Virus record (IMG/VR): IMGVR_UViG_3300025132_000031
Coordinates: 1-63,884 of that record
Reading direction: 5' to 3' (one strand)
Length of the DNA stretch: 63,884 nucleotides
Source of the DNA: a virus
Taxonomy: Duplodnaviria; Caudoviricetes
Made by a program: the position numbers and the translations under genes. The notes below the pieces were generated by a model, which saw nothing but the letters and a program-made list of their open reading frames with translations, did no database searches and was not told the DNA's origin. Shown in pieces: positions 11,571 to 26,901 of this stretch; the first letter of the stretch is position 1, and each line of letters begins with the position of its first letter.

Positions 11571-12224
11571 TTATCCATAACCAATGTTTCCCACTAAACA
11601 GCAACGTCCTTCTGCTTCTTGGTCTTTCGGTTCAACCCGATGGAAGCGTGGTCCAAGAAATACAGTTAAAGATCCTTCTTTTGCTTCAACATATTCCGAA
11701 GAACCATCGATATTATCAATAATTAAAGGTGCAGAGCCCTTAGGAGTATTGACATTGTAAGAAAAACTCAATATATAAGGGAAATGACAATGAGTAACAA
11801 CGCCGGTGTGTTTGGCGTAGGTAATTCCCCAACATTCTGCAACGTAAAACTTTGTTGTATCAAAACCTAGCGAACCTATTAAGTCCCCTCTTCTCCAATA
11901 TTTTTGATTTTCGAACCTACCGCAAGCGAAATTAACGCAAACTTCTAACATTTTGTCGTTTAAGAAGTGCATAAACTTTTGCATCGCAGGATTATCTTGC
12001 TCTATCTGGTGCAAATCCCAGGGTGTGCGTTTACTGTTCCCCTTGACAGGTCTTTCAATTAAATTTTTGATAATATTTCGCTCTAATTCGTCTTTAATTT
12101 CAGAATGATTTGGATTATCGCACTGCAAATACAAACATTCCGTTTTGTGCTGGAAGCTAAGGTCATCGACTGGCACCCCTTGCTCCATGATGCGTTGCGA
12201 TTTTACTTCGTTGGAGGCGGCCAT
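11571..12224 (-). CDS. Putative 2OG-Fe(II) oxygenase (TIGR02466-like)
   Basis: ECWG...HCH...SFSYNV...EGSLTVF...FHRV...RCCLVGN. Confidence 0.7.
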   Translation of the reverse strand: MAASNEVKSQRIMEQGVPVDDLSFQHKTECLYLQCDNPNHSEIKDELERNIIKNLIERPVKGNSKRTPWDLHQIEQDNPAMQKFMHFLNDKMLEVCVNFACGRFENQKYWRRGDLIGSLGFDTTKFYVAECWGITYAKHTGVVTHCHFPYILSFSYNVNTPKGSAPLIIDNIDGSSEYVEAKEGSLTVFLGPRFHRVEPKDQEAEGRCCLVGNIGYG

Positions 12225-12791
12225 AGCGACTTTTTACGTTCTTTTTATTATGACAACAAATAGGGAAAGCGTTTTTCCTGATGAAGCGTATTATTCACTA
12301 TTTAGGGCCTCGTGGGAAAAATCCGAAAAATTCCTCTCAGCGCCCGATACATTAAACACCCACTGCGAGTTGTAGAACCTTCCAAACAAAAAAAGAATAG
12401 GCAAATCTTTAGAGCAATAAGCGTTGATGTTAGTGCTGCACTGAGCGATGTTAGTTAATTGATAACAACCAATCGCAATCGCACACGCTATCGCTTACTT
12501 AAACGCACCTGATTTCATTTGAATGCGATTTCAATGGAGCTATTCCTTTGCATTCATTAGCTATCCCCATGCATTCCTGCGTAGGCAACAGTTATCCAGC
12601 ACATACCCGCATACATAACGCATATTCTGCACGCCGCTTCCTCGCTCGCTCCTTGGCTCCAGATCTCTTGACGCTTGGATATTACTGTTGCTATCTCACA
12701 CTTATAGCTTATCAATCCCAAAGGGTAGACGTATTTTGTACCTATATCTCAACTCAGTAGGTGTTGCACTATTTGATGTTAGTTGTATGTT

Positions 12792-12815
12792 AATGTACCT
12801 TTTCATCAGTACATT
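12792..12815 (+). promoter_or_regulatory. Conserved early element copy 1 (AATGTAC-cttttcatca-GTACATT)
   Basis: Perfect 7-bp inverted arms; ATG follows immediately at 12816. Confidence 0.8.
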
Positions 12816-13115
12816 ATGACTTTCCTTAATAAAGCATACGATGTAAACATTCAAGGTTTAAATGGATGTATCTTCCAATCCTATGGCACAGATTGGGACG
12901 ATGTTAATAGCAATAAGGACTTGACTTACACAGATGATCGTTACTGGACACACCCATGTGGTGGAGTCTCAGAAGAATTCATCTATTGGTATGTCAATGA
13001 TTATGGCTCAGATAGCATCGAATACTACAGAGTTCTCATAGGTCCAGATCCGGTTGACTCTAATTTGCAAGCACACCAAGCAGAATTTGCCAAAGAGCTT
13101 GCGATTCCTTTCTGA
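12816..13115 (+). CDS. Hypothetical early protein (99 aa)
   Basis: ATG directly after the motif; terminator after the stop. Confidence 0.75.
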   Translation: MTFLNKAYDVNIQGLNGCIFQSYGTDWDDVNSNKDLTYTDDRYWTHPCGGVSEEFIYWYVNDYGSDSIEYYRVLIGPDPVDSNLQAHQAEFAKELAIPF

Positions 13116-13122
13116 GTAAATG

Positions 13123-13152
13123 CCCCTGCTTCGGTAGGGGTTGCTTTCTTTT
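13123..13152 (+). terminator. Intrinsic terminator, cUUCGg hairpin
   Basis: cccctgc-ttcg-gtagggg plus T-rich tail. Confidence 0.75.
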
Positions 13153-13165
13153 GAAGTTCAACTGA

Positions 13166-13286
13166 TTCGCTCACTTTGTTCGCTCACCCAGGCCTCGAGT
13201 CACGCTCGCTTTGCTCGCTACTCTCGGATTCATGAAGGTCTCACCAGGTAAGCGACTAGGTAAGCACCAGAACAGCCACTAGGTAA
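13166..13286. repeat. Short repeats: CGCTCRCTTTGYTCGCT x2 and SACYAGGTAA x3
   Basis: Copies at 13168-13184 and 13203-13219; at 13242, 13254 and 13277. Confidence 0.7.
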
Positions 13287-13296
13287 TGTTGTTTAT

Positions 13297-13318
13297 TGTC
13301 AACTTTCATCAGTACATT
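13297..13318 (+). promoter_or_regulatory. Conserved early element copy 2
   Basis: TGTCA-actttcatca-GTACATT; ATG at 13327. Confidence 0.8.
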
Positions 13319-13326
13319 TCTTATTC

Positions 13327-13488
13327 ATGACTACGCTTAAATCTCTTGCAAATCCTTGGGTCATAGGAGTAATCATTGGAGTAGCCCTCCGATATTACAA
13401 CTGCGATGGCGACTGGAATCTATTCTTTTCGCTCAAGCTTTGGGACTTCACTCCGACTATCCCAGAGTTCAACATACTCACTAGGTAA
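13327..13488 (+). CDS. Small protein (53 aa) with hydrophobic N-terminal segment
   Basis: Manual translation MTTLKSLANPWVIGVIIGVALRYY...NILTR*; lies between motif and terminator. Confidence 0.65.
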   Translation: MTTLKSLANPWVIGVIIGVALRYYNCDGDWNLFFSLKLWDFTPTIPEFNILTR

Positions 13489-13506
13489 GCACCATGTCAT
13501 CCCAAC

Positions 13507-13545
13507 ACCCCTGCTTCGTTTCAATCGAGGTGGGGGTTTCTTTTT
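13507..13545 (+). terminator. Intrinsic terminator
   Basis: acccctgcttcg/cgaggtgggggt stem plus T tract. Confidence 0.8.
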
Positions 13546-13566
13546 GTCCACCATCATCAGTACATT
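13545..13566 (+). promoter_or_regulatory. Conserved early element copy 3
   Basis: TGTCC-accatcatca-GTACATT. Confidence 0.8.
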
Positions 13567-13581
13567 TTTGTACTCTCTGTC

Positions 13582-13731
13582 ATGCTTAACTCAGTTGATT
13601 ATGTAACAGAAGTCCTGCAGGAGAAGCGTATCGATAAGATACACAAGCTATCTGAGGAAGATTACAAAGCTTACATGCAATGCGTTAAAGATGGACTAGA
13701 ACCAGCCATGTGTCATCTATATATCTGGTAA
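13582..13731 (+). CDS. Small protein (49 aa)
   Basis: Manual translation MLNSVDYVTEVLQEKRIDK...CHLYIW*. Confidence 0.65.
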   Translation: MLNSVDYVTEVLQEKRIDKIHKLSEEDYKAYMQCVKDGLEPAMCHLYIW

Positions 13732-13756
13732 GCACCAGGTCAGACACATTCCCACT

Positions 13757-13792
13757 ACCCCTGCTTCGATTTACTCGAGGTGGGGGTTTTTT
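13757..13792 (+). terminator. Intrinsic terminator (same stem as 13507)
   Basis: acccctgcttcg/cgaggtgggggt plus T tract. Confidence 0.8.
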
Positions 13793-13794
13793 AG

Positions 13795-13816
13795 TGTGCC
13801 ATTTCATCGGTACATT
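13795..13816 (+). promoter_or_regulatory. Conserved early element copy 4
   Basis: TGTGC-catttcatcg-GTACATT. Confidence 0.8.
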
Positions 13817-13840
13817 TTTCCCACTTACAGGTTAATTTCT

Positions 13841-14308
13841 ATGACTGCAGCTCAAGTTACTCAAATCGAAAAGCTTACTCAGCAACTATCAGAAGCTAAG
13901 GCTGAGATAGATGCCGCCAAAGCTACCGAGTCAGCACCAGGTCAGGCTTGGTGCAACCTAGAGCTCAAGTTACGCTTACCAGCAGATCTCAATGATCTCA
14001 AGCCCAGCGAGTATAACGGTAACAAGTCTATTAGATTCCAAGCAACTCCCTTAGTTTGGAACAAGCAGACAAAAGGTTACCAAGAAGGCAGATCATACTT
14101 CTTTGAATCAACTGACAACGGTTTCGGAGCACTCGCTACCGAAGTCGAGACACGTATCAAAGAAGATCGCCGTGACATCATTGTCCGTGCCCGCTACGAG
14201 ACTTGGGTCTACACCAGAGATGGAGAAGAGGTCACTTGCGACAAGTGGAAAGTCGTAACCATTCAGGATATTCCAGTATCCAAGTATGCAACACAGGAAA
14301 CTGCATAA
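13841..14308 (+). CDS. Hypothetical protein, possibly SSB-like OB fold
   Basis: YFF...LATEV...IIVRARYETWVYTRDGE pattern; ATG 13841 preferred. Confidence 0.5.
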   Translation: MTAAQVTQIEKLTQQLSEAKAEIDAAKATESAPGQAWCNLELKLRLPADLNDLKPSEYNGNKSIRFQATPLVWNKQTKGYQEGRSYFFESTDNGFGALATEVETRIKEDRRDIIVRARYETWVYTRDGEEVTCDKWKVVTIQDIPVSKYATQETA

Positions 14309-14316
14309 CAAACCCT

Positions 14317-14355
14317 ATACCCTGCCTAGCTTTTACTTGCTAGGTGGGGTATTTT
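14317..14355 (+). terminator. Intrinsic terminator
   Basis: ataccctgcctagc/gctaggtggggtat stem. Confidence 0.75.
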
Positions 14356-14360
14356 CATTT

Positions 14361-14382
14361 TGTACCCTCTCACCAGTACATT
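14361..14382 (+). promoter_or_regulatory. Conserved early element copy 5
   Basis: TGTAC-cctctcacca-GTACATT; ATG at 14386. Confidence 0.8.
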
Positions 14383-14385
14383 TTC

Positions 14386-14724
14386 ATGACTTATAGCACC
14401 GACCACAATGGCTTGGCAGAATTCCTTGAACCATTGGATGATGACCCCGATATTTACATAGGAAGTCTCACCACCAAGGAAGCTCTTGGCATTATCGATG
14501 CTGCTCACAAATCAAACAGTAACTCCTTATCAAGAGTTCACCACCAAATAGTCCAAGGCATCGCCTTAAAAGTATCCACCCTCAAACACTCATCCAATAA
14601 GGATAAGAAACAGCTTGCCGAATACGCAGAGCATGAGGCCAAGTGGAAAGCCAAGCTTGACAAGGCTCTCGAAAAACACGAGGAAGAGTATTCACCACTC
14701 AACGAGGACACCGAACATGAGTGA
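14386..14724 (+). CDS. Hypothetical protein
   Basis: ATG 3 nt after the motif. Confidence 0.7.
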   Translation: MTYSTDHNGLAEFLEPLDDDPDIYIGSLTTKEALGIIDAAHKSNSNSLSRVHHQIVQGIALKVSTLKHSSNKDKKQLAEYAEHEAKWKAKLDKALEKHEEEYSPLNEDTEHE

Positions 14725-14893
14725 CCGACGTGGATTCGAAGGTCTTCCCAAGAAGATCAACCCTGATAAGACTGAATGGATAGGCACTCACCTAACTAAC
14801 AGTCTTTATGAGGAGGATGAGATTCCAGACAGAAAAGGCTACGCAGCCGATCAACTTCTCTTCGACGACACTCTCAACGAGTCCCATATATAA
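14717..14893 (+). CDS. Small acidic protein (58 aa)
   Basis: MSDRRGFEG...; overlaps upstream stop; followed by terminator. Confidence 0.6.
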   Translation: MSDRRGFEGLPKKINPDKTEWIGTHLTNSLYEEDEIPDRKGYAADQLLFDDTLNESHI

Positions 14894-14899
14894 ATGCAC

Positions 14900-14932
14900 A
14901 GCCCTGCCTTACTACTAAGGTGGGGCTTTTTT
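14900..14932 (+). terminator. Intrinsic terminator
   Basis: agccctgcctta/taaggtggggct plus T tract. Confidence 0.8.
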
Positions 14933-14935
14933 ATT

Positions 14936-14957
14936 TGTACCATCTCATCGGTACATT
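14936..14957 (+). promoter_or_regulatory. Conserved early element copy 6
   Basis: TGTAC-catctcatcg-GTACATT. Confidence 0.8.
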
Positions 14958-14973
14958 CTTTTGCTTATTCCTT

Positions 14974-15357
14974 ATGTCATCTTCTGCTTTATCTCCAGAG
15001 TTCAAAGACCTACCCGGAGAAATCATGGACATTCCAGACGACGTTTATGAAGAACACCAGGAAAGCGAGAACACCACTACTATGGATGTGAATATCACAG
15101 ATCAACTCTTGAAAATCATATCCAAAGTAACACTCGCTGGACTATTCATCTTCAACTTCTGCAAGGCTACATTCCATGCCGTGCTACCTAGCATTGTTCG
15201 TCTCTTATATAGATACAACAAGTGGGCTATGCAACAGAAACCACTATCCAATCTCATAAAATACCTCTACAACTTAAGAACCGAAGACTATTGGGTCTAC
15301 AAGACCAAGACTGGTCGATTAAAAGATCTAGACGGTAACTGGTTCTCTAAGAAGTAG
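14974..15357 (+). CDS. Hypothetical protein
   Basis: ATG after motif; terminator follows. Confidence 0.7.
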   Translation: MSSSALSPEFKDLPGEIMDIPDDVYEEHQESENTTTMDVNITDQLLKIISKVTLAGLFIFNFCKATFHAVLPSIVRLLYRYNKWAMQQKPLSNLIKYLYNLRTEDYWVYKTKTGRLKDLDGNWFSKK

Positions 15358-15368
15358 AGGGTAACCTC

Positions 15369-15420
15369 ACCCTCGTGGCTACTATGCTTCCGAGGGTTTT
15401 TTATTGTGATACATCAGTAC
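15369..15420 (+). terminator. Terminator followed by degenerate element copy 7 (CATCAGTAC)
   Basis: accctcg/cgagggt plus T tract; core at 15412-15420. Confidence 0.65.
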
Positions 15421-15432
15421 TAACCCCTTAAA

Positions 15433-15669
15433 CTACGCACCGTAAGCAGGCTCAGGCTGATACGATCCCGACAAGGCATACTCAGGCTGACTATATTCCG
15501 GTGCCATCACATTACCAAACGTACTCTCATCGTAAAACTGGTTCACCAGTGAACGAGGAATCATTTTATCCCGACGAAAACCACGACGGAGATTCTCTAT
15601 CTTGTCATTCTTTAGACCTTCTCTTATATCGAAGTCAAAGACATCACCAGCTAATCTCAGTCCTTCCAT
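15433..15669 (-). CDS. Hypothetical protein (LRLAGD at N-terminus)
   Basis: Minus-strand island; shares the late-protein motif. Confidence 0.65.
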   Translation of the reverse strand: MEGLRLAGDVFDFDIREGLKNDKIENLRRGFRRDKMIPRSLVNQFYDESTFGNVMAPEYSQPEYALSGSYQPEPAYGA

Positions 15670-15808
15670 TCCTTAACCTCTCTTTGTTCACACATCTCAA
15701 CAGTCTCTTGATACCACACATACTTAGATCCACGAGTATCCCCATGAGTCTCCATAGACAACAACACCTTCCTAGCTATATCACATTCAGTAGGAGTCGG
15801 TTGTTTAA

Positions 15809-16294
15809 TCATGAGGTTAATACATCAGATCTTCCAGCAGCTTGCTGCTCTCCTTCTTGCAAATAATCCATGATTGCAACTAAACCAGCAGCACCTGCGG
15901 TCATCGAACCACCATAAAATGAAGATCTTTGCACGTTTCCCCAGAAACCTTCGGAAGCCATGCCTCTAGAAACCTGCTCTCCAACTCCTGCTTGGCGAGC
16001 ACCTACAGCCTCATCTATTAAGTCTTCGATGTTAATACCTGCATCTCTCGCTCCTTTAACTCCAGTAGGAGAAGACCAATCCCCAGGTGCACCACCTTTA
16101 GGGGCATAGTCTTGACCGACACTAGCAGCTACCTTAGCGTCGAAACTATCCCATCCTTGAGCATCATCTATCTTGACTCGACGATTCAATTCATCTCTCA
16201 AAGCTTGATCACCAGCTTCTCTGAAACGATCAGCGTGACCAGTCCATACCTTGTGATGAGGCTGAACTATATTCTCATCAATCCAACGTCTCAT
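15809..16294 (-). CDS. Hypothetical Gly/Ala-rich protein (REAGD)
   Basis: 161-aa ORF in minus-strand island. Confidence 0.7.
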   Translation of the reverse strand: MRRWIDENIVQPHHKVWTGHADRFREAGDQALRDELNRRVKIDDAQGWDSFDAKVAASVGQDYAPKGGAPGDWSSPTGVKGARDAGINIEDLIDEAVGARQAGVGEQVSRGMASEGFWGNVQRSSFYGGSMTAGAAGLVAIMDYLQEGEQQAAGRSDVLTS

Positions 16295-16338
16295 CTGTAA
16301 ATAATAATTGCGATACCTATATTGTACGTCTTTTTATT

Positions 16339-16360
16339 TGTAAGCTTTCATCAGTACATT
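16339..16360 (+). promoter_or_regulatory. Conserved early element copy 8
   Basis: TGTAA-gctttcatca-GTACATT. Confidence 0.8.
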
Positions 16361-16399
16361 TTGTGCTGGTCTATTGCTTCACGTTGTTTGATTTTTCTC

Positions 16400-16762
16400 A
16401 TGAAAATCCCATTCATCAATGCAGAACTGAATCTCTATTCAGGGACTGATAACAAATACGGGACCAACTGGGGACACATCGAGTTCCTCATGTGGTCCGG
16501 TTCCAATGACTCCAAACTGGAGACAATCCTCACAGCAGGAATGAAATCCGATCACCTCGTCAAAGCCGTAGGCCAAGACGATCCCACTATCTTCGAAGTC
16601 GTTGACGGCCAGAAGATTCACCGCAAGATCCTCATTGTAGGAGGCAAGCCAGTCGGAGAAGTCCCTCTCAAGACTATGGTTGCCAACTATAAAAGAGATC
16701 AAGCTCGTAAGAATCTCGACAAGGCCGAAGCAGTCGAAGCTACCGTTGCATCCGCAGCATAA
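16400..16762 (+). CDS. Hypothetical protein
   Basis: ATG 16400 downstream of motif. Confidence 0.7.
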   Translation: MKIPFINAELNLYSGTDNKYGTNWGHIEFLMWSGSNDSKLETILTAGMKSDHLVKAVGQDDPTIFEVVDGQKIHRKILIVGGKPVGEVPLKTMVANYKRDQARKNLDKAEAVEATVASAA

Positions 16763-16767
16763 CTAAC

Positions 16768-16832
16768 GAGGGGGCAGTGCTCATCTGCAGTCATGGATAA
16801 TGCCTCTGCAGTAACTGACACTTAACCCCCTC
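16768..16832 (+). other. Long intergenic hairpin
   Basis: Nested pairs gaggggg/ccccctc, agtg/cact, tca/tga, ctgcag/ctgcag; no U tract. Confidence 0.55.
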
Positions 16833-16848
16833 TCCTACCACTTCTAAA

Positions 16849-17484
16849 ATGACTTCTAAATCTCAAGCTAAAACTCAAGCTAATCAAGTTCCATCTAAGC
16901 CAGTCTCCTCGGCGAAGATGATTCCACAGCAAATGAACCGAAGCAAACTCGAGAGAAACCTACGAGACCTTGCTTATGACATGCTTCAATGTCCACCTGA
17001 GGCAGACTTCATCGAAGATCTAACTTCAGAAGACCCTGTTCTAAAACAGAAGGCGCAAGAACAGGTTGAAATGTGTCTAGTAGGAGCCGAACAGTTCGAC
17101 GAGAATGCAGACCAACTCCTGAGCATGGTTAGCTGGTTCAAGAATCGAGCACAATTCAGGATCGACGAGGCCAAGAGAATCAAAGCTCTGGCCGAGAGAG
17201 ATACCAAGACAGCCGATAGACTTGAATCCTTTGTCTATTCCATGTTCAGACATGTGTACCAAGATCAGTTCACTAAATATGATCTACCTACACACAAAAT
17301 CACATCAAGGAAAACAGAATCCGTAGATGTAGATGAATACAACATTAACTGGGACAAGATTCCAGAATCATGTACTCGAACAAAGAAATCCATTGATAAA
17401 GCAGAAATCAAGAAACTATTAAAGACCAACATGAAATTCCAAGGGGTCACCCTCAAAGTAGAAAGGAAGTGGTCTTTCGCATGA
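16849..17484 (+). CDS. Siphovirus Gp157-family protein
   Basis: Coiled coil (EAKRIKALA) then RKTESVDV...IPE...IDKAEIKKLLK...GVTL. Confidence 0.75.
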   Translation: MTSKSQAKTQANQVPSKPVSSAKMIPQQMNRSKLERNLRDLAYDMLQCPPEADFIEDLTSEDPVLKQKAQEQVEMCLVGAEQFDENADQLLSMVSWFKNRAQFRIDEAKRIKALAERDTKTADRLESFVYSMFRHVYQDQFTKYDLPTHKITSRKTESVDVDEYNINWDKIPESCTRTKKSIDKAEIKKLLKTNMKFQGVTLKVERKWSFA

Positions 17485-18122
17485 AAAATATCAATCTTGA
17501 CAAGCCTCTTTATTTAGCAGAAGACTTCTTCGTCACCGCACGTGAAGATTCCAACTTAGTCAGTCTCACCCCTGTCACTGAAAAAGCAATCAACTATCTT
17601 CACGAACTTGTGCCTGACCTATCTAAAGGTGAATCATTCATCCAATCATACGATGATGTTTGCCTTCTAGTAGATACCTTTATCCCCTCCGAATTTTCAG
17701 TATCATGGTTATCCCCACTCAACGTGCTAAGAGAAATTCAAAGTACGATCCAGTCCACGTTATCACGACAACTCCAGGAGCCAGCATCCAACCAGAGCAG
17801 AAGCGAGCAGGATACTGGTTTGCCCGAATCGACTTCGCCCTTAGCAACGGAAAGAATGCCCCTATTGCATTCCACAAAGTTAATAAAGACCTCATCAAAA
17901 GAGGCATGCGTATCAGTACTGACGGCACACTCCTTAAGGACGGACGCAGCTTCACAACCGAACTCAAATACAACGAAACTCTCAAATGTGAGGAACTCGT
18001 TTTTGATCACCTCAGACCCAGCGGCAACCAATCGATGGAAGAAAGTAATCAGGAGCCTTCAGCGGATTTCGAAGGATACGGAGACGCTGACAGTATCACT
18101 GAGCTGCCCGAACAACCAGTGA
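17481..18122 (+). CDS. Hypothetical protein; 3' two-thirds overlaps next gene
   Basis: ATGA coupling to the Gp157 stop. Confidence 0.5.
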   Translation: MKNINLDKPLYLAEDFFVTAREDSNLVSLTPVTEKAINYLHELVPDLSKGESFIQSYDDVCLLVDTFIPSEFSVSWLSPLNVLREIQSTIQSTLSRQLQEPASNQSRSEQDTGLPESTSPLATERMPLLHSTKLIKTSSKEACVSVLTAHSLRTDAASQPNSNTTKLSNVRNSFLITSDPAATNRWKKVIRSLQRISKDTETLTVSLSCPNNQ

Positions 18123-18367
18123 GTTACGATCCATTCCCTGACCCTAGTGAGAAGACAGTCCTCAGAGGAAACCATTCAGAGAACCAACTAGATCCAGACT
18201 TCAAGTTCTTACTTGATCAATGTCTTAATGGTCATGTCTATATGACATCACGATTAGGAGTCAGAGAACACATTCGTCCTGATACTATTCAGAAGTATGT
18301 CACTTCAGTGAACATTGCTTTCGTAGACATCTACAAAGCCAAGAAACAACAAGGAGAATTGCAATGA
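17705..18367 (+). CDS. Hypothetical protein
   Basis: MVIPTQRAKR...; coupled to downstream gene. Confidence 0.7.
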   Translation: MVIPTQRAKRNSKYDPVHVITTTPGASIQPEQKRAGYWFARIDFALSNGKNAPIAFHKVNKDLIKRGMRISTDGTLLKDGRSFTTELKYNETLKCEELVFDHLRPSGNQSMEESNQEPSADFEGYGDADSITELPEQPVSYDPFPDPSEKTVLRGNHSENQLDPDFKFLLDQCLNGHVYMTSRLGVREHIRPDTIQKYVTSVNIAFVDIYKAKKQQGELQ

Positions 18368-18714
18368 AAATGCATGAGCATTCACCTACTCCCTCTGAAG
18401 TTCTTTCTGCGGGGCTACCTATCTATTTCCGAATAGGTAATAGCTCTAAGGAAGTTTTAGAAAGACAAGGAGTCGACAGCATCCAAGAAGAATACCCAGA
18501 GGAATTCGCATGGGTACCTAAAGGCGACTACGTCCACTGCTTTCACTTCCAGAAAGGACAAGGAGGAACCATGGTGAAACGTAAGAAAGACAAAGCTCTA
18601 GTAGAGCTGGCCTTGATTATGAATACTCACCCTGGTATAAAGAATGCAGAAGCTAGTCTACGCTTTGAAGCTCAATTTGCCGACGATGAAACCGACGACC
18701 AAGTATCGAGTTGA
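18364..18714 (+). CDS. Hypothetical protein
   Basis: AGGAG SD, ATGA overlap. Confidence 0.7.
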   Translation: MKMHEHSPTPSEVLSAGLPIYFRIGNSSKEVLERQGVDSIQEEYPEEFAWVPKGDYVHCFHFQKGQGGTMVKRKKDKALVELALIMNTHPGIKNAEASLRFEAQFADDETDDQVSS

Positions 18715-18913
18715 ATTCGTTATACAAGGTGAACCACCTCTCGAACTAGAAGATGTCATTGCAAACACTTGCAAGAAATGGGATCTTCAAGCTACCCAAT
18801 ATAGATATGTTCAACTAGTGGATCCACCTCAAAGAGAGATATCCTTCTCTCCTTCAGGAGTTCCTCTACATATGTTGGACAATATCCAAATACAAGAGCT
18901 ACCTGACTACTAG
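18686..18913 (+). CDS. Hypothetical protein
   Basis: MKPTTKYRVEF... Confidence 0.55.
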   Translation: MKPTTKYRVEFVIQGEPPLELEDVIANTCKKWDLQATQYRYVQLVDPPQREISFSPSGVPLHMLDNIQIQELPDY

Positions 18914-18984
18914 CACGACTCCATAGGGAATATTCTCATCTTCTGACATGCTGTTTTAAACTATCTCAAGTTGCGAACTTAAGC

Positions 18985-19149
18985 ATGAATGCACCAAGAC
19001 TTATTCCAACCGACGCTACTAAGTTAGATGAGGTTGATCAGTATTTCGAGTGTATTGCTAGCTGCCCACCAGCAGATCCAGAATGCAATGCCGAGTGCAC
19101 AGAAGAATTAAAGAGTGACGTAGCTCAACTCAATGTCCCATCCTATTAA
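18985..19149 (+). CDS. Small 4-Cys protein (YFECIASC...ECNAEC), similar to a conserved picocyanobacterial small protein
   Basis: Manual translation, 54 aa, twin CxxxC. Confidence 0.6.
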   Translation: MNAPRLIPTDATKLDEVDQYFECIASCPPADPECNAECTEELKSDVAQLNVPSY

Positions 19150-19345
19150 GTTGGACTCTTTGGCCAGACAGCTTGCTGACTGGGAGATTAGATATCAATT
19201 TAACAGTCCTCACGCAGAGCTTTTCATTGCTGAAAATTGCACTGCATCTCAAGCATGGTACCGATTCTTATCCTTAATCCCTGAGGATGAGAGAGGTAGC
19301 AGTAATAGTAATTGGTCTCTTAAACCTGTAGAAGACTACGACTAA
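19133..19345 (+). CDS. Hypothetical protein
   Basis: ORF track; co-oriented. Confidence 0.55.
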   Translation: MSHPIKLDSLARQLADWEIRYQFNSPHAELFIAENCTASQAWYRFLSLIPEDERGSSNSNWSLKPVEDYD

Positions 19346-19863
19346 CCACAGTTACGGATGGTTGCCTTAATCATCCAACTAGTCTTCCATACATCTCCTA
19401 GTAACTCTGCCAAATAATTAGCAACATCATAGGCTTGACACTGTTGTGCTGCCGGCTCAACCATCTTGAGCATATTAGAGAACGCTTCTAAGTTCTTTAA
19501 GTAAGTAGCCAACATATCTTTGCCTTCGTAGGACTCAACGTTCTTAAAGCATGGACCTAAAGCCTCTTTTAGTCCACAAGCACACATTGGCATCCAATAG
19601 TCAAGAGTTCTCACCAACTCTCCTAGCTTGTCAAACTGCTCTGTATGTAACTCATACTGATCCTTTAAGAACTCATGTACTGCTAAGAAGTTGCTGCCCT
19701 CATAATTGAAATGAATCAAATGCGATTGAGTCTGTAACTCTTTCGCAAAGGCTGCCAATAATACAAGCTTCTGACCTATATCCCCTACCTGTTCTTCCTT
19801 TATCGACTCACTCGGTAACACTTGCAATAGCAAGTCATCAGGTTGGCTTGGGATAATGTCCAT
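19342..19863 (-). CDS. dps: Dps / ferritin-like protein
   Basis: HFNYEGSNFLAVHEFLKDQYE...FDKLGELVR...KTSWMI ferroxidase pattern. Confidence 0.85.
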   Translation of the reverse strand: MDIIPSQPDDLLLQVLPSESIKEEQVGDIGQKLVLLAAFAKELQTQSHLIHFNYEGSNFLAVHEFLKDQYELHTEQFDKLGELVRTLDYWMPMCACGLKEALGPCFKNVESYEGKDMLATYLKNLEAFSNMLKMVEPAAQQCQAYDVANYLAELLGDVWKTSWMIKATIRNCG

Positions 19864-19903
19864 GGACTAGGCGCTGCTGTATCTATTGTAAGGCGTTTGT
19901 TTC

Positions 19904-19925
19904 CGCCGAATTACATCGGTACATT
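19904..19925 (+). promoter_or_regulatory. Conserved early element copy 9 (left arm degenerate)
   Basis: ttaCATCGGTACATT. Confidence 0.7.
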
Positions 19926-19948
19926 TGTTAACCTCTGACTTCGTTTTC

Positions 19949-20566
19949 ATGTCTAAAACCACAGATCAACTGATCGACATTCGTAATACTCTCCCTCTAG
20001 ACGAGAACGGCTTGCCAATGAAGCCGGCATTACCTCTCCTGACTATGGGAATCAATCGAGATGGCTGTCTCTACGGTTATGGAGATACTCCTGACAAGCC
20101 TAAGTTCACATGGGCAGAGAATGCAGGACTCTTCTTCTTTGGTAAGCCAACTCTAGGCTTAACCCATCACGTAACAAGAGGAAGCAGACATCCTTACCTC
20201 AATGTCTATCTCAACACTGTACAGATAGATGATGGAGGCTTCCCTAACCCTGATAAGAACGGATTGACAATCTTAAAGATGAAGATGGGTAACAACCCAG
20301 TGCAGAATGCTCCAGTCACTTTCCTTGGAGATCTAAGGAAACTACATGCAGGAGGTACTATTGACCGAGAGAAATTTAACGGCATCATATACACAAACAA
20401 AGGTACCAAAGGTGGCATCTTTGCTCATATCTATTCAATGGATAACCGAGCTATTGATGGCGTTCCTTTCAACCGTGAACCAGAGCGTTTCCAAGAAGAA
20501 CTTGGACACTTCTGTGAAGCTTTGGGTCAGACTAGTCTCTTTCCTCGAATAATCAATGTCGAATAA
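19949..20566 (+). CDS. Hypothetical protein
   Basis: ATG after motif. Confidence 0.75.
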   Translation: MSKTTDQLIDIRNTLPLDENGLPMKPALPLLTMGINRDGCLYGYGDTPDKPKFTWAENAGLFFFGKPTLGLTHHVTRGSRHPYLNVYLNTVQIDDGGFPNPDKNGLTILKMKMGNNPVQNAPVTFLGDLRKLHAGGTIDREKFNGIIYTNKGTKGGIFAHIYSMDNRAIDGVPFNREPERFQEELGHFCEALGQTSLFPRIINVE

Positions 20567-20819
20567 AACAGTCACAGATCTATCTGCATTTCGCCAACAG
20601 AAGGCATTGCTTCAACGAGTATCACAAGAGGAAACTCTTAACCTCGGGGTTCTACCCACTATCGAGCACTTACTAAAAAGTATCCCTTCACTGAAGGAGT
20701 CACTCCCTCCTCAGTTCAGAAATCGTTTGGCGTTAATAGAGATAGAACTTGAACGACTGAGAGACAACGTTAAAGACATCAACATATTAATTAACCCTTA
20801 CCTTCCTTTACCTAAATGA
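20556..20819 (+). CDS. Hypothetical protein
   Basis: Coupled ORF. Confidence 0.6.
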   Translation: MSNKTVTDLSAFRQQKALLQRVSQEETLNLGVLPTIEHLLKSIPSLKESLPPQFRNRLALIEIELERLRDNVKDINILINPYLPLPK

Positions 20820-21928
20820 TTAGGTTTGCCATGACTTCCTCTCAAGCTAAAACCCACGAAATCAAAATGCCAATGACTGTCACAGGACTATGCACTAAAG
20901 ATGTAGAAGATCCGGGCTCTGAAACTTTCAGCCCTGGCAAAGTCACTCGAGCAGACGCACAGTTCTTTCAAGGACTTAAGTCCGAATGCCGAGAGTGGCA
21001 ATCGACAGAAGAACAACTGAAATCCATTGGTTGCAACTGGCTAGTAACTCCTGAACCTTTATATTCAAAAAGATATGACAGAACCTACCCTGAGATCGTT
21101 AACTGGTACACCAGTGATGGAGATCGCTTAGGTCAGTTCTCTAACTGCAGACATATCATCCATCCTCAAGATGGTTTGAATTGGTATAAAGAGTTTATCC
21201 GTCAAACAAAAGCTGCCTTCTTACAGGAGCTCACGTTAGATGTCATAGGTTATTTACCTGATCAGAAAGTTTTATACTTTGCATCCAAACTCACTGACCT
21301 GAATCCTGAGAAGCTTAAAGAAGTTGGTGATACAACTGATTTCTTCTTGATGTTCAGCATCAACTACATGGAACCTAGAGCTATGAAGGCTCAGATATGG
21401 GCTAACGAATTAGTCTGTGAGAACGGTATGACCCGTCGCATCAGAGATGGTCAAGCAACTGTGAATCACAGGCAAGCTCGTGGCCAATTTGATATATACA
21501 AAGCATTAGAAGCTGCTGTCTTAGAAGCTAAGAGACACGTATATATAAAGGAAAGCTTCATAGATACTCCATGTAACGATGTGGAAGGCAGGAGATACAT
21601 CCGTCGCTTCTTCCAAGATTCAATACCAGAGGAACATCGTGAGTATGCAATAGACAATCCTACATGTAATGTTGATTCTCGAATCATCAACCAATTAGAA
21701 CATACATTCTTGCATAGTCTTAAAGGTGGACACCTTGAGACAAGACAAGACAACTTATTCCGTGTTCATTCCGCAGTAACGGAGTACACAAGCCACCATA
21801 AGGCTGTTAGAAACGGTGATGATTCAAGGTTTGCCAAGCAATTAGATGGCAATCTTTCAAGGATCAATACTCAGTTCACTGAGTTCCTTCAAAAAGCAAC
21901 AACAGGAAGAGACTTCAATGCCATTTAA
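20816..21928 (+). CDS. DUF932/DUF945-like phage protein
   Basis: LVCENGM, downstream H, N-L-F-x-V-H-S-A-V-T-E-Y-T-S-H motif. Confidence 0.7.
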   Translation: MIRFAMTSSQAKTHEIKMPMTVTGLCTKDVEDPGSETFSPGKVTRADAQFFQGLKSECREWQSTEEQLKSIGCNWLVTPEPLYSKRYDRTYPEIVNWYTSDGDRLGQFSNCRHIIHPQDGLNWYKEFIRQTKAAFLQELTLDVIGYLPDQKVLYFASKLTDLNPEKLKEVGDTTDFFLMFSINYMEPRAMKAQIWANELVCENGMTRRIRDGQATVNHRQARGQFDIYKALEAAVLEAKRHVYIKESFIDTPCNDVEGRRYIRRFFQDSIPEEHREYAIDNPTCNVDSRIINQLEHTFLHSLKGGHLETRQDNLFRVHSAVTEYTSHHKAVRNGDDSRFAKQLDGNLSRINTQFTEFLQKATTGRDFNAI

Positions 21929-22190
21929 GAAAAGATCTAACAAGACTGAACCTCCAAAATACAAAGCTGGAGATAGAGTCTCTAGAGCTACTGGTCTTCC
22001 ACGTCAAGGTACCGTTCTTAAACGTGTCGACGACTTGGAGTACACCAATGGAAGGAAGCATAAACAATTCCTCGTCAAGTGGGACAACTCATCCCACCCT
22101 GAGGAGATTGTCACTCAACGTTTACGTCTTATAAAATCACAAAATCCTGATGGGCAAACACAAAAGGAAGACATACAGTCAAAAATATAG
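21918..22190 (+). CDS. Small SH3/Tudor-like protein
   Basis: YKAGDRV...GTV...FLVKWD. Confidence 0.55.
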   Translation: MPFKKRSNKTEPPKYKAGDRVSRATGLPRQGTVLKRVDDLEYTNGRKHKQFLVKWDNSSHPEEIVTQRLRLIKSQNPDGQTQKEDIQSKI

Positions 22191-22332
22191 ACTAAGAGAA
22201 GGTAGCTACAAGCGTGCCCTTCGCCACCAATTAAATTCTGACGGTACCCCTTTATTCCAAGATGGACACATTGATGTTCTCGACCTTAACGCCTCGAGAA
22301 AAATTCTTAATAGAGATAGAAAAAGCAGCTAA
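22150..22332 (+). CDS. Small basic protein
   Basis: ORF track. Confidence 0.45.
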   Translation: MGKHKRKTYSQKYRLREGSYKRALRHQLNSDGTPLFQDGHIDVLDLNASRKILNRDRKSS

Positions 22333-22389
22333 CACAGTGCTTTCTCAACAACCTAATGCTTTCTGTAACCTCTACCCAAATTCATCACA

Positions 22390-22608
22390 ATGCCAACTAC
22401 AACAATCGACTGCGACATCTATACGATTAGCGAACTGATCTTTATTAGAGACGCCATACAAGGAGTGCCATCTCGTTCTCCTGAGCAAGAAGAAAAGAAG
22501 ATCGATATGATCTCCAAGACTAATGAATTGATAGCAGAAATATCCGCTAAGGCACGGAGGAAAGAAAGAGCCACCCACTCTTCTCTTGATAAAGGTATAC
22601 TCGATTAA
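22390..22608 (+). CDS. Hypothetical protein
   Basis: ORF track. Confidence 0.6.
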   Translation: MPTTTIDCDIYTISELIFIRDAIQGVPSRSPEQEEKKIDMISKTNELIAEISAKARRKERATHSSLDKGILD

Positions 22609-22610
22609 CC

Positions 22611-22690
22611 TCTGGCAGTGAGGAGGGGTTGGTCGTCTTCTGATAAAGAATATTAAGACTGAGACAGGCGACCACTCATGTAAGACCAGA
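22611..22690 (+). ncRNA. Candidate structured intergenic RNA
   Basis: tctgg/ccaga, tgag/ctca and tggtcgtct/aggcgacca stems with a UGUAAG internal loop. Confidence 0.45.
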
Positions 22691-22696
22691 CTATTG

Positions 22697-22729
22697 AACC
22701 CTCTACGTGGTGGGCGTAGGGGGTTTTTT
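22697..22729 (+). terminator. Intrinsic terminator
   Basis: aaccctctacg/cgtagggggtt plus T tract. Confidence 0.8.
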
Positions 22730-22731
22730 AG

Positions 22732-22753
22732 TGTCCACTTTCATCGGTACATT
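22732..22753 (+). promoter_or_regulatory. Conserved early element copy 10
   Basis: TGTCC-actttcatcg-GTACATT; ATG at 22758. Confidence 0.8.
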
Positions 22754-22757
22754 GCTT

Positions 22758-23399
22758 ATGTCTTTGCTTAAGCTTGGCGCTGGGAATGCCAAGTTATCAG
22801 ATACAATCCTGACTTTCAGTACTCCCGCAGGACATTGCTGTCCTGGTGCTAAATATTGTCACGTATTAGCAGACAGAGAAACAGGCAAGCTAACAAAAGC
22901 TTCCAATCTTCTGTATGACTGCTATGCCTCTCGAATGGAAGCACGTTGGCCGACAGTACGCAACGCTCGTTGGCACAACAAAGATCTCATAGATTCTATG
23001 ACTCTTACAGATCTCATAGATTGTATGGTCTTATCCATCAATGAACATAAGAGCTTCAAGAAAGCTGAAATGTTTAGATGGTTTGTTTCAGGTGATTGCG
23101 ACTCGATAAAACTTCGTGATGCAATTTTTGCCACTGCTCGAGAAGTGAATCACCTTATTCATTACTCGTACACCAAAAACTTACCCTTGTTCTTAGACAT
23201 TAAAAAGCCTGAGAACTATCGGCTAAGTGCTAGTTGGGGAGGTCGCTTCGATCACCTCATCAACCCTATTGACTTTCCACGTAACGCAAGAGTCGTTCGC
23301 TCAGTAGAAGAAGCTGCCAAGCTTAACCTCCCTATTGATAAGAAAGATGATCTTGCTTACGGTCCAATAGATCAACCCTTTGCCCTTCTCTATCACTAA
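22758..23399 (+). CDS. Gp88-like protein
   Basis: GNAKL...PAGHCCPGAKYC...CYA...FRWFVSGD...YSYTK. Confidence 0.75.
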   Translation: MSLLKLGAGNAKLSDTILTFSTPAGHCCPGAKYCHVLADRETGKLTKASNLLYDCYASRMEARWPTVRNARWHNKDLIDSMTLTDLIDCMVLSINEHKSFKKAEMFRWFVSGDCDSIKLRDAIFATAREVNHLIHYSYTKNLPLFLDIKKPENYRLSASWGGRFDHLINPIDFPRNARVVRSVEEAAKLNLPIDKKDDLAYGPIDQPFALLYH

Positions 23400-23401
23400 C
23401 T

Positions 23402-24387: not shown

Positions 24388-24762
24388 ATGACTAAATTCG
24401 TCCACATGCAAACACCCACGTCATCAGAATTCTATGAATTCATTAACAATTCCCCTGTTGAAATCCTTGATAAAGAAGAAACAGAACAGATTTACAACAC
24501 TGGTGGAAAAATGTATCGCAAGATTAATTATGCTTTCAAGGTTCCATTTGACAAAGTTGAATATGAAGAATGGTGCATACAAAAATGTTTAATGGATCTT
24601 CTCAGGAATTACTGCGATAACCAAAGGATTCAACATGGTGCTATAGATGACATCCTTGCAAAGCCAAGAGACAATTTCGATCAAGAAATTAAGTTAAGTG
24701 GCGAACAAAAGTCAGTTCTATTAAATTACAGCAAGATCTGGGACAAGCTGCTTGACTCTTAA
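24388..24762 (+). CDS. Hypothetical protein
   Basis: ORF track, ATG 24388 preferred. Confidence 0.6.
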   Translation: MTKFVHMQTPTSSEFYEFINNSPVEILDKEETEQIYNTGGKMYRKINYAFKVPFDKVEYEEWCIQKCLMDLLRNYCDNQRIQHGAIDDILAKPRDNFDQEIKLSGEQKSVLLNYSKIWDKLLDS

Positions 24763-25813
24763 GTTACTCGATGCCTTCGCTGGTATAGGAGGATTCTCTT
24801 ACGCAGCAGAAAGACTAGTCGGTGGATTTGAAACTAAACAATTTATTGAAATCGACCCTTACTGTCAGTCAGTTTTAAAGAAGAACTTCCCTCACGTTCC
24901 TATACACAATGACATCACAACATTCCAGTCATACCAAGGAGAGTACGACGTACTTACAGCAGGATTTCCTTGCCAGGATTTGTCCGTGGCTGGATCGCAG
25001 AAGGGTATTGGAGAGGGAACTCGCAGCGGCCTTTTCTACGAAGTCATGCGTTTGGTTAGGATCATTCGACCTCGATTCGTCCTACTTGAAAACGTTAGAA
25101 ATCTTATCTCGCACCAGCAAGGGGAAACCTTCCAGGAAATTCTCTTTCAAATTGCCTCGGAGGGGCTTGATGCTGAGTGGGAAATTATTTCAGCTCGAGA
25201 CGTTGGAGCGTGTCACAAAAGAGAACGTATCTGGATCATTGCCTACCCCAAACACAATGGACTCCCTCCCTCTCAGGAGCAAGGAATCCATGATCAAGCA
25301 AGTGACAGAGACGAGACCAGGCAGGACACAACTCTCCAACCTCAGGGAAGCAGTCAACCCAGAAGCAGTTCAACTCTTCGAGGAACTGAAGGAGATGAGG
25401 AATCCACCTCTACCAACTCCGACAGCACGAGACCACAAGGACTCGGGACCCAACCTGAACTACGAGAAGGCTCACCAGAAAAGAAGGCTAGCTGGTTCGG
25501 CGGTCGTCTTGACGAACAGCCTACCAACCCCATGCGCTCGGGATTGGAAGGGCAGATCAGGCCAAGGTTTCCAGGATCGATCAGGTGGGAGACCCCGCCA
25601 ACTTCCAGACGTCTTAACCCGCAGTGGCGAGAGTACGTATCTGAACCCACACTTCGTAGAGGAGATGATGGGTTATCCAATCGGGTACCTCGTTTAAAGG
25701 CACTTGGGAACACAATCGTTCCTCAATGTGCAGCTATTCCTCTACAACGAATCAAACACTTATCTACTTACCCCCACTATGAACAACGAAGCATCTCTCG
25801 AACCTCTCAATGA
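24752..25813 (+). CDS. dcm: DNA (cytosine-5) methyltransferase, main chain
   Basis: Motifs I DAFAGIGG, IV GFPCQD, VI LLENV, VIII HKRERIWI, X LKALGNTIVP; no motif IX. Confidence 0.9.
   Translation: MTLKLLDAFAGIGGFSYAAERLVGGFETKQFIEIDPYCQSVLKKNFPHVPIHNDITTFQSYQGEYDVLTAGFPCQDLSVAGSQKGIGEGTRSGLFYEVMRLVRIIRPRFVLLENVRNLISHQQGETFQEILFQIASEGLDAEWEIISARDVGACHKRERIWIIAYPKHNGLPPSQEQGIHDQASDRDETRQDTTLQPQGSSQPRSSSTLRGTEGDEESTSTNSDSTRPQGLGTQPELREGSPEKKASWFGGRLDEQPTNPMRSGLEGQIRPRFPGSIRWETPPTSRRLNPQWREYVSEPTLRRGDDGLSNRVPRLKALGNTIVPQCAAIPLQRIKHLSTYPHYEQRSISRTSQ
24909..25697 (+). CDS. Embedded alternative-frame ORF, probable second MTase subunit (TRD and motif IX)
   Basis: Three LPTP repeats and YLNPHFVEEMMGYPIGY (motif IX-like). 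Confidence 0.65.
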   Translation: MTSQHSSHTKESTTYLQQDFLARICPWLDRRRVLERELAAAFSTKSCVWLGSFDLDSSYLKTLEILSRTSKGKPSRKFSFKLPRRGLMLSGKLFQLETLERVTKENVSGSLPTPNTMDSLPLRSKESMIKQVTETRPGRTQLSNLREAVNPEAVQLFEELKEMRNPPLPTPTARDHKDSGPNLNYEKAHQKRRLAGSAVVLTNSLPTPCARDWKGRSGQGFQDRSGGRPRQLPDVLTRSGESTYLNPHFVEEMMGYPIGYLV

Positions 25814-26306: not shown

Positions 26307-26357
26307 ACAACTTAGTCAGAGCATTCATGGAATCCATCTCTATCGTTACTATCATCT

Positions 26358-26564
26358 ATGTCATTTTCTCCTGAATTAAAAATCGGAAACATGGAGTGTC
26401 TCAGGTATTGGGCACTCCTAAAAGACACAGAAAATCTAGACCAAGCTGCTAAAGCTGCAACTGATCTAGATAAACTGGCTGGGTTATACGGAACTAAAAG
26501 ACATTCAATTAAAGAATGGACTTTCATGCTGGAAGCCACACTCCTCAATAAGAATATGATCTAG
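26358..26564 (+). CDS. Hypothetical protein
   Basis: ORF track. Confidence 0.5.
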   Translation: MSFSPELKIGNMECLRYWALLKDTENLDQAAKAATDLDKLAGLYGTKRHSIKEWTFMLEATLLNKNMI

Positions 26565-26662: not shown

Positions 26663-26669
26663 GCTACAC

Positions 26670-26888: not shown

Positions 26889-26901
26889 CATTTTATGATT
26901 C

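Follow-up and report, generated by a model that had tools for sequence, protein, structure and literature searches.

The 63,884-bp IMG/VR virus record IMGVR_UViG_3300025132_000031 (the window, i.e., the whole stretch of DNA that was analysed; completeness estimate 76%) carries an array of a conserved 22-nt sequence, which we call the box, and six of its copies lie directly behind predicted terminator hairpins. We think it probable that these units are composite terminator-promoter junctions, an analogue of the PeSL elements of T4-type phages with a private, non-sigma70, co-evolving promoter, and that they also act as crossover points. A bolder version, which we offer tentatively and with some doubt, is a private initiation system in which an unrecognised reader would start transcription inside the 22-nt box to give leaderless mRNAs in picocyanobacteria, with at least seven mutually distinct specificities among close relatives and with the junctions as exchange points for a common pool of early-gene cassettes. 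Promoter activity, the start site, the nature of the reader and the mechanism of recombination are the parts of this picture that we infer.

A directional array of boxes behind terminator hairpins

Searching the window for YTCATCRGTACATT with at most two mismatches returned 10 matches, all on the + strand, whereas dinucleotide-preserving shuffles of the window gave a mean of 1.94 (standard deviation 1.29, maximum 6) and none of 100 shuffles reached 10. Nine of the 10 matches fall within 12802-22753; the tenth (30563, 2 mismatches), which has neither an upstream TGT nor a terminator context, was left uncounted. Alignment of the copies widened the conserved block to 22 nt, TGTnCCnT-TTCATCRGTACATT, with a T-rich stretch ahead of it. 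The array comprises nine full copies and one decayed copy, all on the + strand between 12794 and 22753 (Table 1), and the decayed copy has a hairpin ahead of it and no + strand ORF after it. The first-pass annotation of this DNA, made from the sequence alone, had listed ten copies including one partial, with start coordinates that proved right to within 2 nt, and had proposed a motif scan of the whole record; at no more than one mismatch, that scan gave nine forward copies and no reverse copy. The array is non-random and directional.

Three of the nine full copies (12794, 14361 and 14936) have the complete inverted arms TGTAC-N10-GTACA, as had been noticed in the first pass. The arms are 5 bp long with a 10-nt loop, and their predicted fold is weak (-2.8 kcal/mol or weaker). 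The distance from TGT to TAC, read directly from the sequence, is 11 nt, and the most conserved part of the box is this apparent spacer, TCATCRG.

Terminator-like sites number 24 in the region versus 8.8 expected. Six copies (13545, 13795, 14361, 14936, the partial copy at 15401, and 22732) stand behind related GC hairpins with T-runs, an arrangement also reported in the first pass, and we measured a gap of 7-8 nt from the stem to the onset of the box, which lies inside the T-run so that T-run and box merge. The seven hairpins of the array share the theme CCCCTGC...GGTGGGG, and in all seven the + strand RNA is 3-9 kcal/mol more stable than the - strand RNA because of G.U pairs. We predict that these hairpins are strand-specific terminators, in which case upstream transcripts should end before the box and the next gene would need a start of its own.

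Box type follows the genome

Seven IMG/VR loci were recovered via the primase, among them the relatives G001 (80.5 kb, 95% complete and syntenic with the window) and G002. The box is uniform within a genome. Type A (...ATCRGTACNTT) accounts for nine copies in the window, 12 in G001 and eight in L142, which has the same decayed copy as the window; the G001 copies, CATCRGTAC(A/T/G)TT in the early region, lie mostly behind hairpins and have an ATG 0-4 nt behind them in eight cases. In the same places, all five copies in G002 have a different box, TTGCAG-TAATTCAAC-NN-TGCATT, and this type B (TAATTCAAYNNTGCATT) is likewise uniform in G002 (5/5), L235 (5/5) and L252 (4/4).

We followed the box ahead of the GP88-family gene (22758-23399) because this gene is conserved throughout the relatives, and compared the orthologous junction in 36 metagenome loci and 9 viral loci. 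At least seven variants occur there: A (TTCATCRGTACNTT; window, G001, L142), B (TAATTCAAYNNTGCATT; G002, L235, L252), C (TCATATAACAGTGCAATT; L242, L245), D (TTTATCCGTACGTT; L246, L247), E (TTTTTCAACGGTGCA, with ATG directly after; L254-L259), F (TTTATCAACCGTGCAAAAAT; L221, L260) and G (AATATCATCTGTGCAA; L225, L261-L264). Most of these boxes lie behind a hairpin, all lie behind a T-run, and all end 0-6 nt before the MxLL start of the gene. They share a common plan, namely TG(T/C)nC(C), four A/T positions (W4), T(C)AWC, NR and TRCA, followed by WW. Variants C to G have no inverted arms, which places a dyad or hairpin outside the conserved design; the change from TGTAC/GTACA to TGCA/TGCA in G002 looks compensatory, as a single event.

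Contigs of the same name prefix hold A-like, B and E types. In L235, GP88 is 91% identical to that of the window, yet all five boxes are of type B. This genome is a mosaic, with a B-clade-like early region followed by A-clade-like GP88 and downstream genes, and its nucleotide homology to the window begins at the GP88 ATG. As judged from these comparisons, box type follows the genome and not the gene. Uniformity within a genome combined with difference between close relatives is what would be expected of a co-evolving trans-acting reader, and recognition by a host sigma factor would not readily account for genome-wide variation of this kind.

The box is also rare elsewhere. Among representatives of 185,579 cellular species, the A-type box gave 47 single matches; no genome had two or more, and none of the 47 was titled Prochlorococcus or Synechococcus. 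Six of the 47 are in filamentous cyanobacteria (Rivularia, Nostocales and Plectonema; L278, L283, L294, L297, L310 and L316) and may represent a conserved coding segment. In IMG/VR, multiple copies occur in this clade only: two-copy loci elsewhere were coding-sequence coincidences in unrelated phages, and a scan with exact 15-mers returned single chance matches only.

The complete Synechococcus phage S-EIV1 carries CCTGTCC-N-CATGACA-TAAACTGCT ahead of its GP88 ortholog and three other genes, about 25-35 nt before the ATG, and we read this element as a related architecture with a normal leader. It forms one of two classes in S-EIV1 (KJ410740): CCTGTCC...TAAACTGCT stands before four replication-region genes, and small early genes (L149/L150, e.g., upstream of 41408 and 40711 on the - strand) have TGGTATAAGT or TGGTGTAAGT, which are extended -10-like and embedded between the arms of a ccctggg...cccagg hairpin.

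Two further observations concern GP88-bearing sequences. Contig Ga0208158_1000028 (113,552 bp; L236, L247) has two GP88 genes, 85% and 73% identical to that of the window, with different box subtypes, and may have arisen in assembly, as a chimera or concatenation of two related phages. Distant AT-rich phages with GP88 (L145-L148, e.g., L145 1911-19850) have ten copies of TATATTTG upstream of genes, about 19 nt behind TTG, which we take to be the -33/-7 promoter pattern of Bacteroidota and which contrasts with the box.

Start codons constrain where transcription would begin

Measured to the first ATG that opens an ORF of at least 40 aa, the distances behind the box are, in copy order with the decayed copy included, 0, 8, 15, 24, 3, 16, none, 39, 23 and 4 nt, so the values of 0, 3, 4 and 8 nt that had been given for four copies hold. 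In four genomes taken together, 18 of 35 copies have such an ATG at -1 to +8 nt, where the null is 6.8% (binomial P = 1.3e-12, a value inflated by the partial orthology of the 35 copies), and 2/35 copies have no ORF behind the box. The first-pass annotation had also stressed the missing Shine-Dalgarno (SD) sequence. This is true of the box genes, but so it is of most genes in the window, where an SD-like 4-mer precedes 22 of 92 gene starts, and the feature is not peculiar to boxes.

The strongest constraint comes from GP88, whose start (MxLL...) is conserved and, in every marine variant, follows the box after 0-6 nt; no alternative start is available because the N-terminus is conserved from residue 1. 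In variant E the ATG directly follows TGCA, and in the first copy of L142 the ATG overlaps the last base of the box. With the ATG directly at TGCA, the start site must fall inside the box, and an ordinary -10 reading is excluded for that variant. The earlier argument that TACATT cannot be a normal -10 box is strengthened by these relatives. We place the putative start at the T-R step of TRCA because it is the only conserved pyrimidine-purine step near the 3' end of the box.

Cassettes are lost and exchanged at the junctions

We compared contigs from four DNA metagenome runs (four studies) over 12200-23400. The first cassette is skipped precisely in contigs of all four runs, with the join at 12793>13297 in two of the four (4 ambiguous bases) and at 12815>13321 in the other two (one T between); the two joins put the crossover at the left boundary of the repeated box in one case and at its right boundary in the other. 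Depth in the skipped bin 12948-13321 was 0.25-4.4 versus 6-110 in other bins, and was intermediate in bin 12574-12947, which partly overlaps the deletion. A contig in run X3 leaves the window at 13818, 2 nt past the end of box 4, and goes on with the gene found behind the first box of G001.

Comparison of relatives gave similar endpoints. With G001 and L237, blocks of homology stop at the final base of box 6 (14957), and with B-type genomes they stop just ahead of that box, at 14935; at one place homology to G001 is limited to the junction unit 13508-13566, and L142 homology ends at 14394. Junction zones, which make up 8% of the region, take 10 of 48 clusters of homology endpoints (P = 0.004), a modest statistic drawn from BLAST block ends, many of which are mere divergence. 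The early region is a mosaic among relatives, and eight early ORFs have no PHROG match.

No integrase, resolvase or transposase family was found among the 95 window ORFs. The window does have a PD-(D/E)XK exonuclease, a Gam/Gp157-like protein, an anti-RecBCD-like match and an SSB-like protein. With no recombinase and with repeated junctions of about 60 bp, homologous exchange would be the economical mechanism. The second idea of the first-pass annotation, an integron-like site for exchangeable cassettes, thus survives in part: the cassette deletion, the gene switch at box 4 and the L235 recombinant all end at the box, as a comparison of relatives for breakpoints had been expected to reveal, whereas the lack of a recombinase and the poor conservation of the arms set the array apart from an integron.

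A model for the junctions

In the model that we favour, the RNA hairpin and its U-run would end the upstream transcript and the box, 7-8 nt later, would start the next one. Initiation at the TRCA purine would leave a leader of 0-10 nt in about half of the units, i.e., a leaderless or near-leaderless mRNA. The box would be private to the lineage and read by a co-evolving reader, most probably host RNA polymerase redirected by a small, unrecognised phage factor, possibly injected; an unrecognised phage polymerase seems less likely. The junction of about 60 bp, repeated some ten times, would serve as the crossover point at which single-gene cassettes are gained, lost and exchanged.

Candidate readers of the box

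The T7-type RNA polymerase (RNAP) family PF00940 gave no match at E<=10 in the window, G001, G002, S-EIV1 or G006, and the positive control, the P-SSP7 polymerase, was found at E 2.7e-69. Sigma region 2 (PF04542) was absent from the window and region 4 (PF04545) from four genomes (controls 14/14 positive), although highly diverged gp55-type sigma factors would escape these models. A Pfam scan of the 95 window ORFs (23 families in 85 ORFs, and 10 more ORFs) returned no sigma factor, polymerase, helix-turn-helix (HTH) regulator or recombinase, and PHROG scans of 60 window and G001 proteins returned no polymerase and no sigma factor. Furthermore, the only proteins above 400 aa shared between G001 and complete S-EIV1 are the portal-like protein, the large terminase and part of a 483-aa protein, which leaves little room for a conserved large polymerase. 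The first-pass proposal of a phage-specified promoter giving near-leaderless mRNAs is favoured by the boxes behind terminators, their genome-wide change and the occurrence of at most one copy per cellular genome, and lacks an RNAP or sigma gene to go with it; its suggestion of a virion-borne RNAP finds no support in the window, the relatives or S-EIV1.

Several other candidates were rejected. A search for D.D.D motifs gave only Ca-binding-like or non-conserved matches. Three window proteins resemble their G001 counterparts much more than their G002 counterparts, namely GP88, an SSB-like 227-aa protein and an 88-aa membrane protein; GP88 is excluded as the determinant of box type by L235, in which an A-like GP88 coexists with B-type boxes, and a PDB profile search with GP88 gave nothing useful. 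Conserved early-region proteins of L235 are only 25-38% identical between genomes of one box type. Methylation is an unlikely basis, as the palindromes GTAC (type A) and TGCA (other types) occur across the genome at 0.78-0.98 of expectation, which is no avoidance, and L235 combines an A-like methyltransferase with B-type boxes. A guide RNA also fails, with no antisense copy of the box in the record and no Rfam family or tRNA in the window. Roughly weighed, a small phage factor is the leading candidate, at somewhat less than an even chance; an unrecognised polymerase is distinctly less likely, as is the possibility, to which we give the same weight, that the box is not a promoter, and the host enzyme alone is less likely again.

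Weighing the reading against alternatives

Several points count against reading the box as a promoter with an internal start. Promoter activity is something that we infer from geometry only, and the most likely start, at the purine of the 3' T-R-C-A element, has the same basis. A search for RNA runs that contain the stretch 12700-22699 returned none. About half of the copies (15/35) would have leaders of 14-46 nt, the hairpin is missing at three or four copies, and the breakpoint statistics are modest. No box reader (RNAP, sigma factor or HTH protein) is recognisable in the window, G001 or complete S-EIV1, and no early-region protein tracks box type. Finally, the orthologous promoter of S-EIV1 resembles an activator box with a TAAACT -10, which hints at host RNAP, and its 25-35 nt leader weakens the case for a start inside the box for the lineage as a whole.

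Of the alternatives, the one that we regard as unlikely but least so is an element that acts at the RNA level, either a processing site or a translational operator or enhancer in a read-through transcript, bound by a phage protein (RegA/RegB-like), with the hairpins as 3' stabilisers. Such an element would account for boxes that abut the AUG in half of the copies and for hairpins that are strand-specific RNA structures, and its RNA-binding protein could co-evolve with the box without any need for a polymerase or sigma factor. It does not fit the canonical T-runs that merge with the box, nor the 15 of 35 copies whose ATG is 14-46 nt away and the two with no ORF, in which the box is not tied to a start codon. 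Direct inspection revealed no anti-SD complementarity, the genome has no antisense copy, and ahead of the copy at 12794 there is neither a + strand gene nor a recognisable promoter from which such a transcript could come.

Slightly less probable still is an ordinary host SigA/sigma70-type promoter in which TACNTT is the -10 element (TAnnnT), TGTnC an activator or -35-like site, and transcription starts 6-8 nt downstream. TACATT does fit TAnnnT, the minus-strand genes in the array (15433-16294 and 19342-19863) have TACAAT 24-30 nt before their ATG and resemble genes with ordinary host-type promoters, the S-EIV1 ortholog has TGTCC-N12-TAAACT with its 25-35 nt leader, and no phage polymerase or sigma factor is detectable. 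However, transcription would then begin within or beyond the conserved start codon in 18/35 copies and at all marine GP88 junctions, TGCA|ATG among them. The 11-nt spacer is too short for a -35/-10 pair, no such pair with a 16-18 nt spacer was found at the boxes, and the would-be spacer TCATCRG is the most conserved part. Host sigma specificity also leaves unexplained the seven or more variants in close relatives, three of them in contigs of the same prefix, and sigma70-like consensus sites are depleted in the region (11 versus 22.8 expected).

We consider it improbable that the box is a site-specific recombination site, whether integron-like (an attC analogue) or the end of another mobile element, even though the cassettes hold single genes, breakpoints fall in the box and three copies have inverted arms: the 95 window ORFs lack integrase, resolvase and transposase families, the arms are found in 3/9 window copies, fold weakly and are lost in variants C to G, crossovers occur at different points of the repeat as homologous exchange predicts, and each cassette has its own terminator and box in place of a single common promoter. 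The most improbable of all is a hairpin-type promoter for an injected virion RNAP of the N4 kind, which the early-gene location, the non-sigma70 sequence and the arms of some copies would suit, but no relative has an ORF above 979 aa, the 863-aa and 979-aa neighbours of the array are unrelated between genomes that share a box, and the arms are weak and not conserved.

Relation to known systems

PeSLs are repeated intergenic units of T4-type phages that consist of a sigma70-consensus early promoter and a stem-loop terminator with G-T pairs; according to the available text of two reports, they are found ahead of ORFans in hyperplastic regions and bring about the shuffling of modules (Arbiol et al. 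2010, PMC2839356; Comeau et al. 2014, PMC4122927). The box units resemble them in three respects: a terminator stem-loop within a repeated intergenic unit (here seven + strand hairpins with T-runs, predicted from sequence), clustering in a hyperplastic region upstream of ORFans (here all copies lie within 12.8-22.8 kb), and indels or replacements between relatives that end in the elements (here the cassette-1 deletion, the switch at box 4 and L235). They differ in that the PeSL promoter, as described in that text, is an Escherichia coli sigma70 consensus with an SD, whereas the box is not sigma70-like and has no SD. The same text describes five variable hairpin placements in PeSLs, compared with a fixed 7-8 nt upstream here, and tests of PeSL promoter and terminator activity, whereas the box units are known from sequence alone. 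In addition, the box changes genome-wide between relatives, and the lineage is S-EIV1-like and not T4-like. Three of the four PeSL features that could be compared are thus present and the sigma70-plus-SD feature is not; we would therefore class the array as PeSL-like, in an unrelated phage lineage and with a different, private start signal. The T4-type PeSL, which the first-pass annotation had offered as an analogue, is the closest known system.

T7-group promoters span 23 bp, contain the start site and evolve in step with the RNA polymerase of the phage. The box is likewise a block of about 22 nt that must hold the start site, variable between close relatives and uniform within a genome, but no T7-type RNAP gene was found in the window, G001, G002, G006 or S-EIV1, and to our knowledge the box has no sequence likeness to known T7-group promoters. 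T4 middle promoters have a MotA box about 12 bp upstream of a TAnnnT -10 and depend on sigma appropriation. Similarly, 11-12 nt separate TGTnC from a hexamer like TAnnnT, an arrangement that is clearest in S-EIV1 (TGTCC-N12-TAAACT) and that would imply a phage factor that redirects the host polymerase; in the marine clade, however, the nearness of the start codon precludes initiation 7 nt past the hexamer, and neither MotA nor AsiA was among the 23 Pfam families of the general window scan, no search aimed at these families having been made.

Integron attC arrays are also series of single genes bounded by a repeated exchange site; here there is no integrase or IntI-type recombinase among the 95 ORFs, imperfect palindromes are not conserved, and a terminator and a start signal come with every cassette. 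N4-type early promoters are hairpins with a 5-7 bp stem and a 3-nt loop, read by a giant virion RNAP, and were rejected on the 5-bp arms with a 10-nt loop in 3/9 copies and on largest ORFs of 863 and 979 aa. The NtcA/CRP-type box of cyanobacteria is a GTA-N8-TAC dyad, and was rejected as the dyad here is GTA-N12-TAC, in 3/9 copies, and variants C to G do not have it. Each of the T7-type, N4-type, integron and NtcA readings thus lacks a defining feature and fails. In halovirus HF2, repeated intergenic sequences were shown to be promoters, according to the available text (PMC8707807), in an archaeal host with an archaeal transcription system, unlike the present case. We found no description of the terminator-box element in the main text of the literature on cyanophage promoter motifs and terminators, on S-EIV1 and on leaderless cyanophage mRNAs.

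If the box is a promoter, an abundant and unstudied cyanophage lineage would use an initiation signal that resembles no described class of bacterial or phage promoter. The reader of the box, once found, could reveal a new way to redirect or replace cyanobacterial RNA polymerase and offer orthogonal short promoters, and the near-leaderless layout would bear on translation start in picocyanobacteria, which make little use of SD sequences. Whatever the reader, the junctions would extend PeSL-type modular shuffling beyond T4-like phages and indicate that it operates in natural populations.

Phage lineage

No close isolate of the window was found. The 419 phage records matched by a conserved protein (44921-45934) are without exception cyanophages of Synechococcus or Prochlorococcus. 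In a relative, the portal-like protein has S-EIV1 as its sole match (47.5% identity), and the Pfam scan of the window returned a cyanophage outer-membrane-protein domain. Together with the few SD sequences, these matches identify the window by sequence as a marine member of the S-EIV1 lineage, with a picocyanobacterial host (Synechococcus or Prochlorococcus) as the probable one. Marine environmental genomes of this lineage have been reported, and the gOTU G238 accounts for 3.3% of marine cyanophage reads, as given in the available text of PMC5332604. Judged by synteny with S-EIV1, only a short stretch between the ends of G001 is probably missing.

Features of the array and of the rest of the window

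Table 1. Boxes, junctions and cassettes of the early array in the window.
Feature	Position	Strand	Description
Box copy 1	12794-12815	+	TGTACCTTTTCATCAGTACATT; no hairpin ahead; ATG of ORF 12816-13115 immediately after; left crossover partner in the cassette-1 deletion
Cassette 1	12816-13141	+	99-aa ORF 12816-13115 and terminator hairpin 13122-13141; polymorphic in nature
Box copy 2	13297-13318	+	ATG of 53-aa ORF 13327-13488 at 8 nt; right crossover partner in the cassette-1 deletion
Junction, box copy 3	13507-13566	+	Hairpin 13507-13537, T-run, box 13545-13566, then ORF 13582-13731
Junction, box copy 4	13757-13816	+	Hairpin 13757-13787, T-run, box 13795-13816, then ORF 13841-14308
Junction, box copy 5	14317-14382	+	Hairpin 14317-14352, T-run, box 14361-14382 (full arms); ATG of ORF 14386-14724 at 3 nt
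Junction, box copy 6	14900-14957	+	Hairpin 14900-14927, T-run, box 14936-14957 (full arms), then ORF 14974-15357
Hairpin and decayed box	15369-15422	+	Hairpin 15369-15397, box 15401-15422 (ATACATCAGTACTA); faces inverted three-gene module 15433-16294 (-)
Box copy 7	16339-16360	+	No hairpin; heads operon 16400-19345, which includes Gam/Gp157-like gene 16849-17484
Box copy 8	19904-19925	+	Without TGT; heads operon 19949-22608, which includes DUF932 gene 20816-21928; divergent from Dps-like gene 19342-19863 (-)
Junction, box copy 9	22696-22753	+	Hairpin 22696-22726, T-run, box 22732-22753; ATG of GP88-family gene 22758-23399 at 4 nt

The inverted three-gene module sits exactly between the decayed box and box 7. 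Neither of two non-coding stretches, 12225-12793 and 26307-26901 (about 570-595 nt each), has an Rfam or tRNA match; part of the first is conserved in G001, G002 and L142, and it holds a box-like TTTTGTACCTATATCTCAACTCAGTAGG with a 5-nt insertion at about 12727-12754.

Beside the early array, next to a conserved 71-aa gene, the window has a large gene of 863 aa (8213-10804, -) and G001 in the same position one of 979 aa (L137:611-3547), and the two have no detectable similarity to each other. PHROG returned nothing for either protein, and the 863-aa protein also lacks a Pfam or Atlas match (best Atlas score 0.77). An ORF that runs off the end of the window (3-1877, -) encodes DUF4214 repeats and a C-terminal pretoxin-HINT/intein-like domain. 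No DNA polymerase was recognised in the window; S-EIV1 has a family A enzyme. Genes for nucleotide metabolism and possibly DNA modification (42180-42500, 36084-36590, 39395-40159, 24752-25813 and 50842-51603) include a dATP/dGTP diphosphohydrolase N-terminal domain (E 1e-31), a dCMP deaminase, a Thy1-like protein and a DNA methyltransferase, as well as three 2OG-Fe(II) oxygenase matches and PAPS-reductase/PP-loop matches. Finally, CGCG occurs once in the 63,884 bp of the window versus 38 expected under a maximal-order Markov model (ratio 0.03; GCGC ratio 0.48), and its relatives have no such depletion (42 observed versus 60 expected in G001, 26 versus 44 in G002), which suggests strain-specific restriction avoidance.

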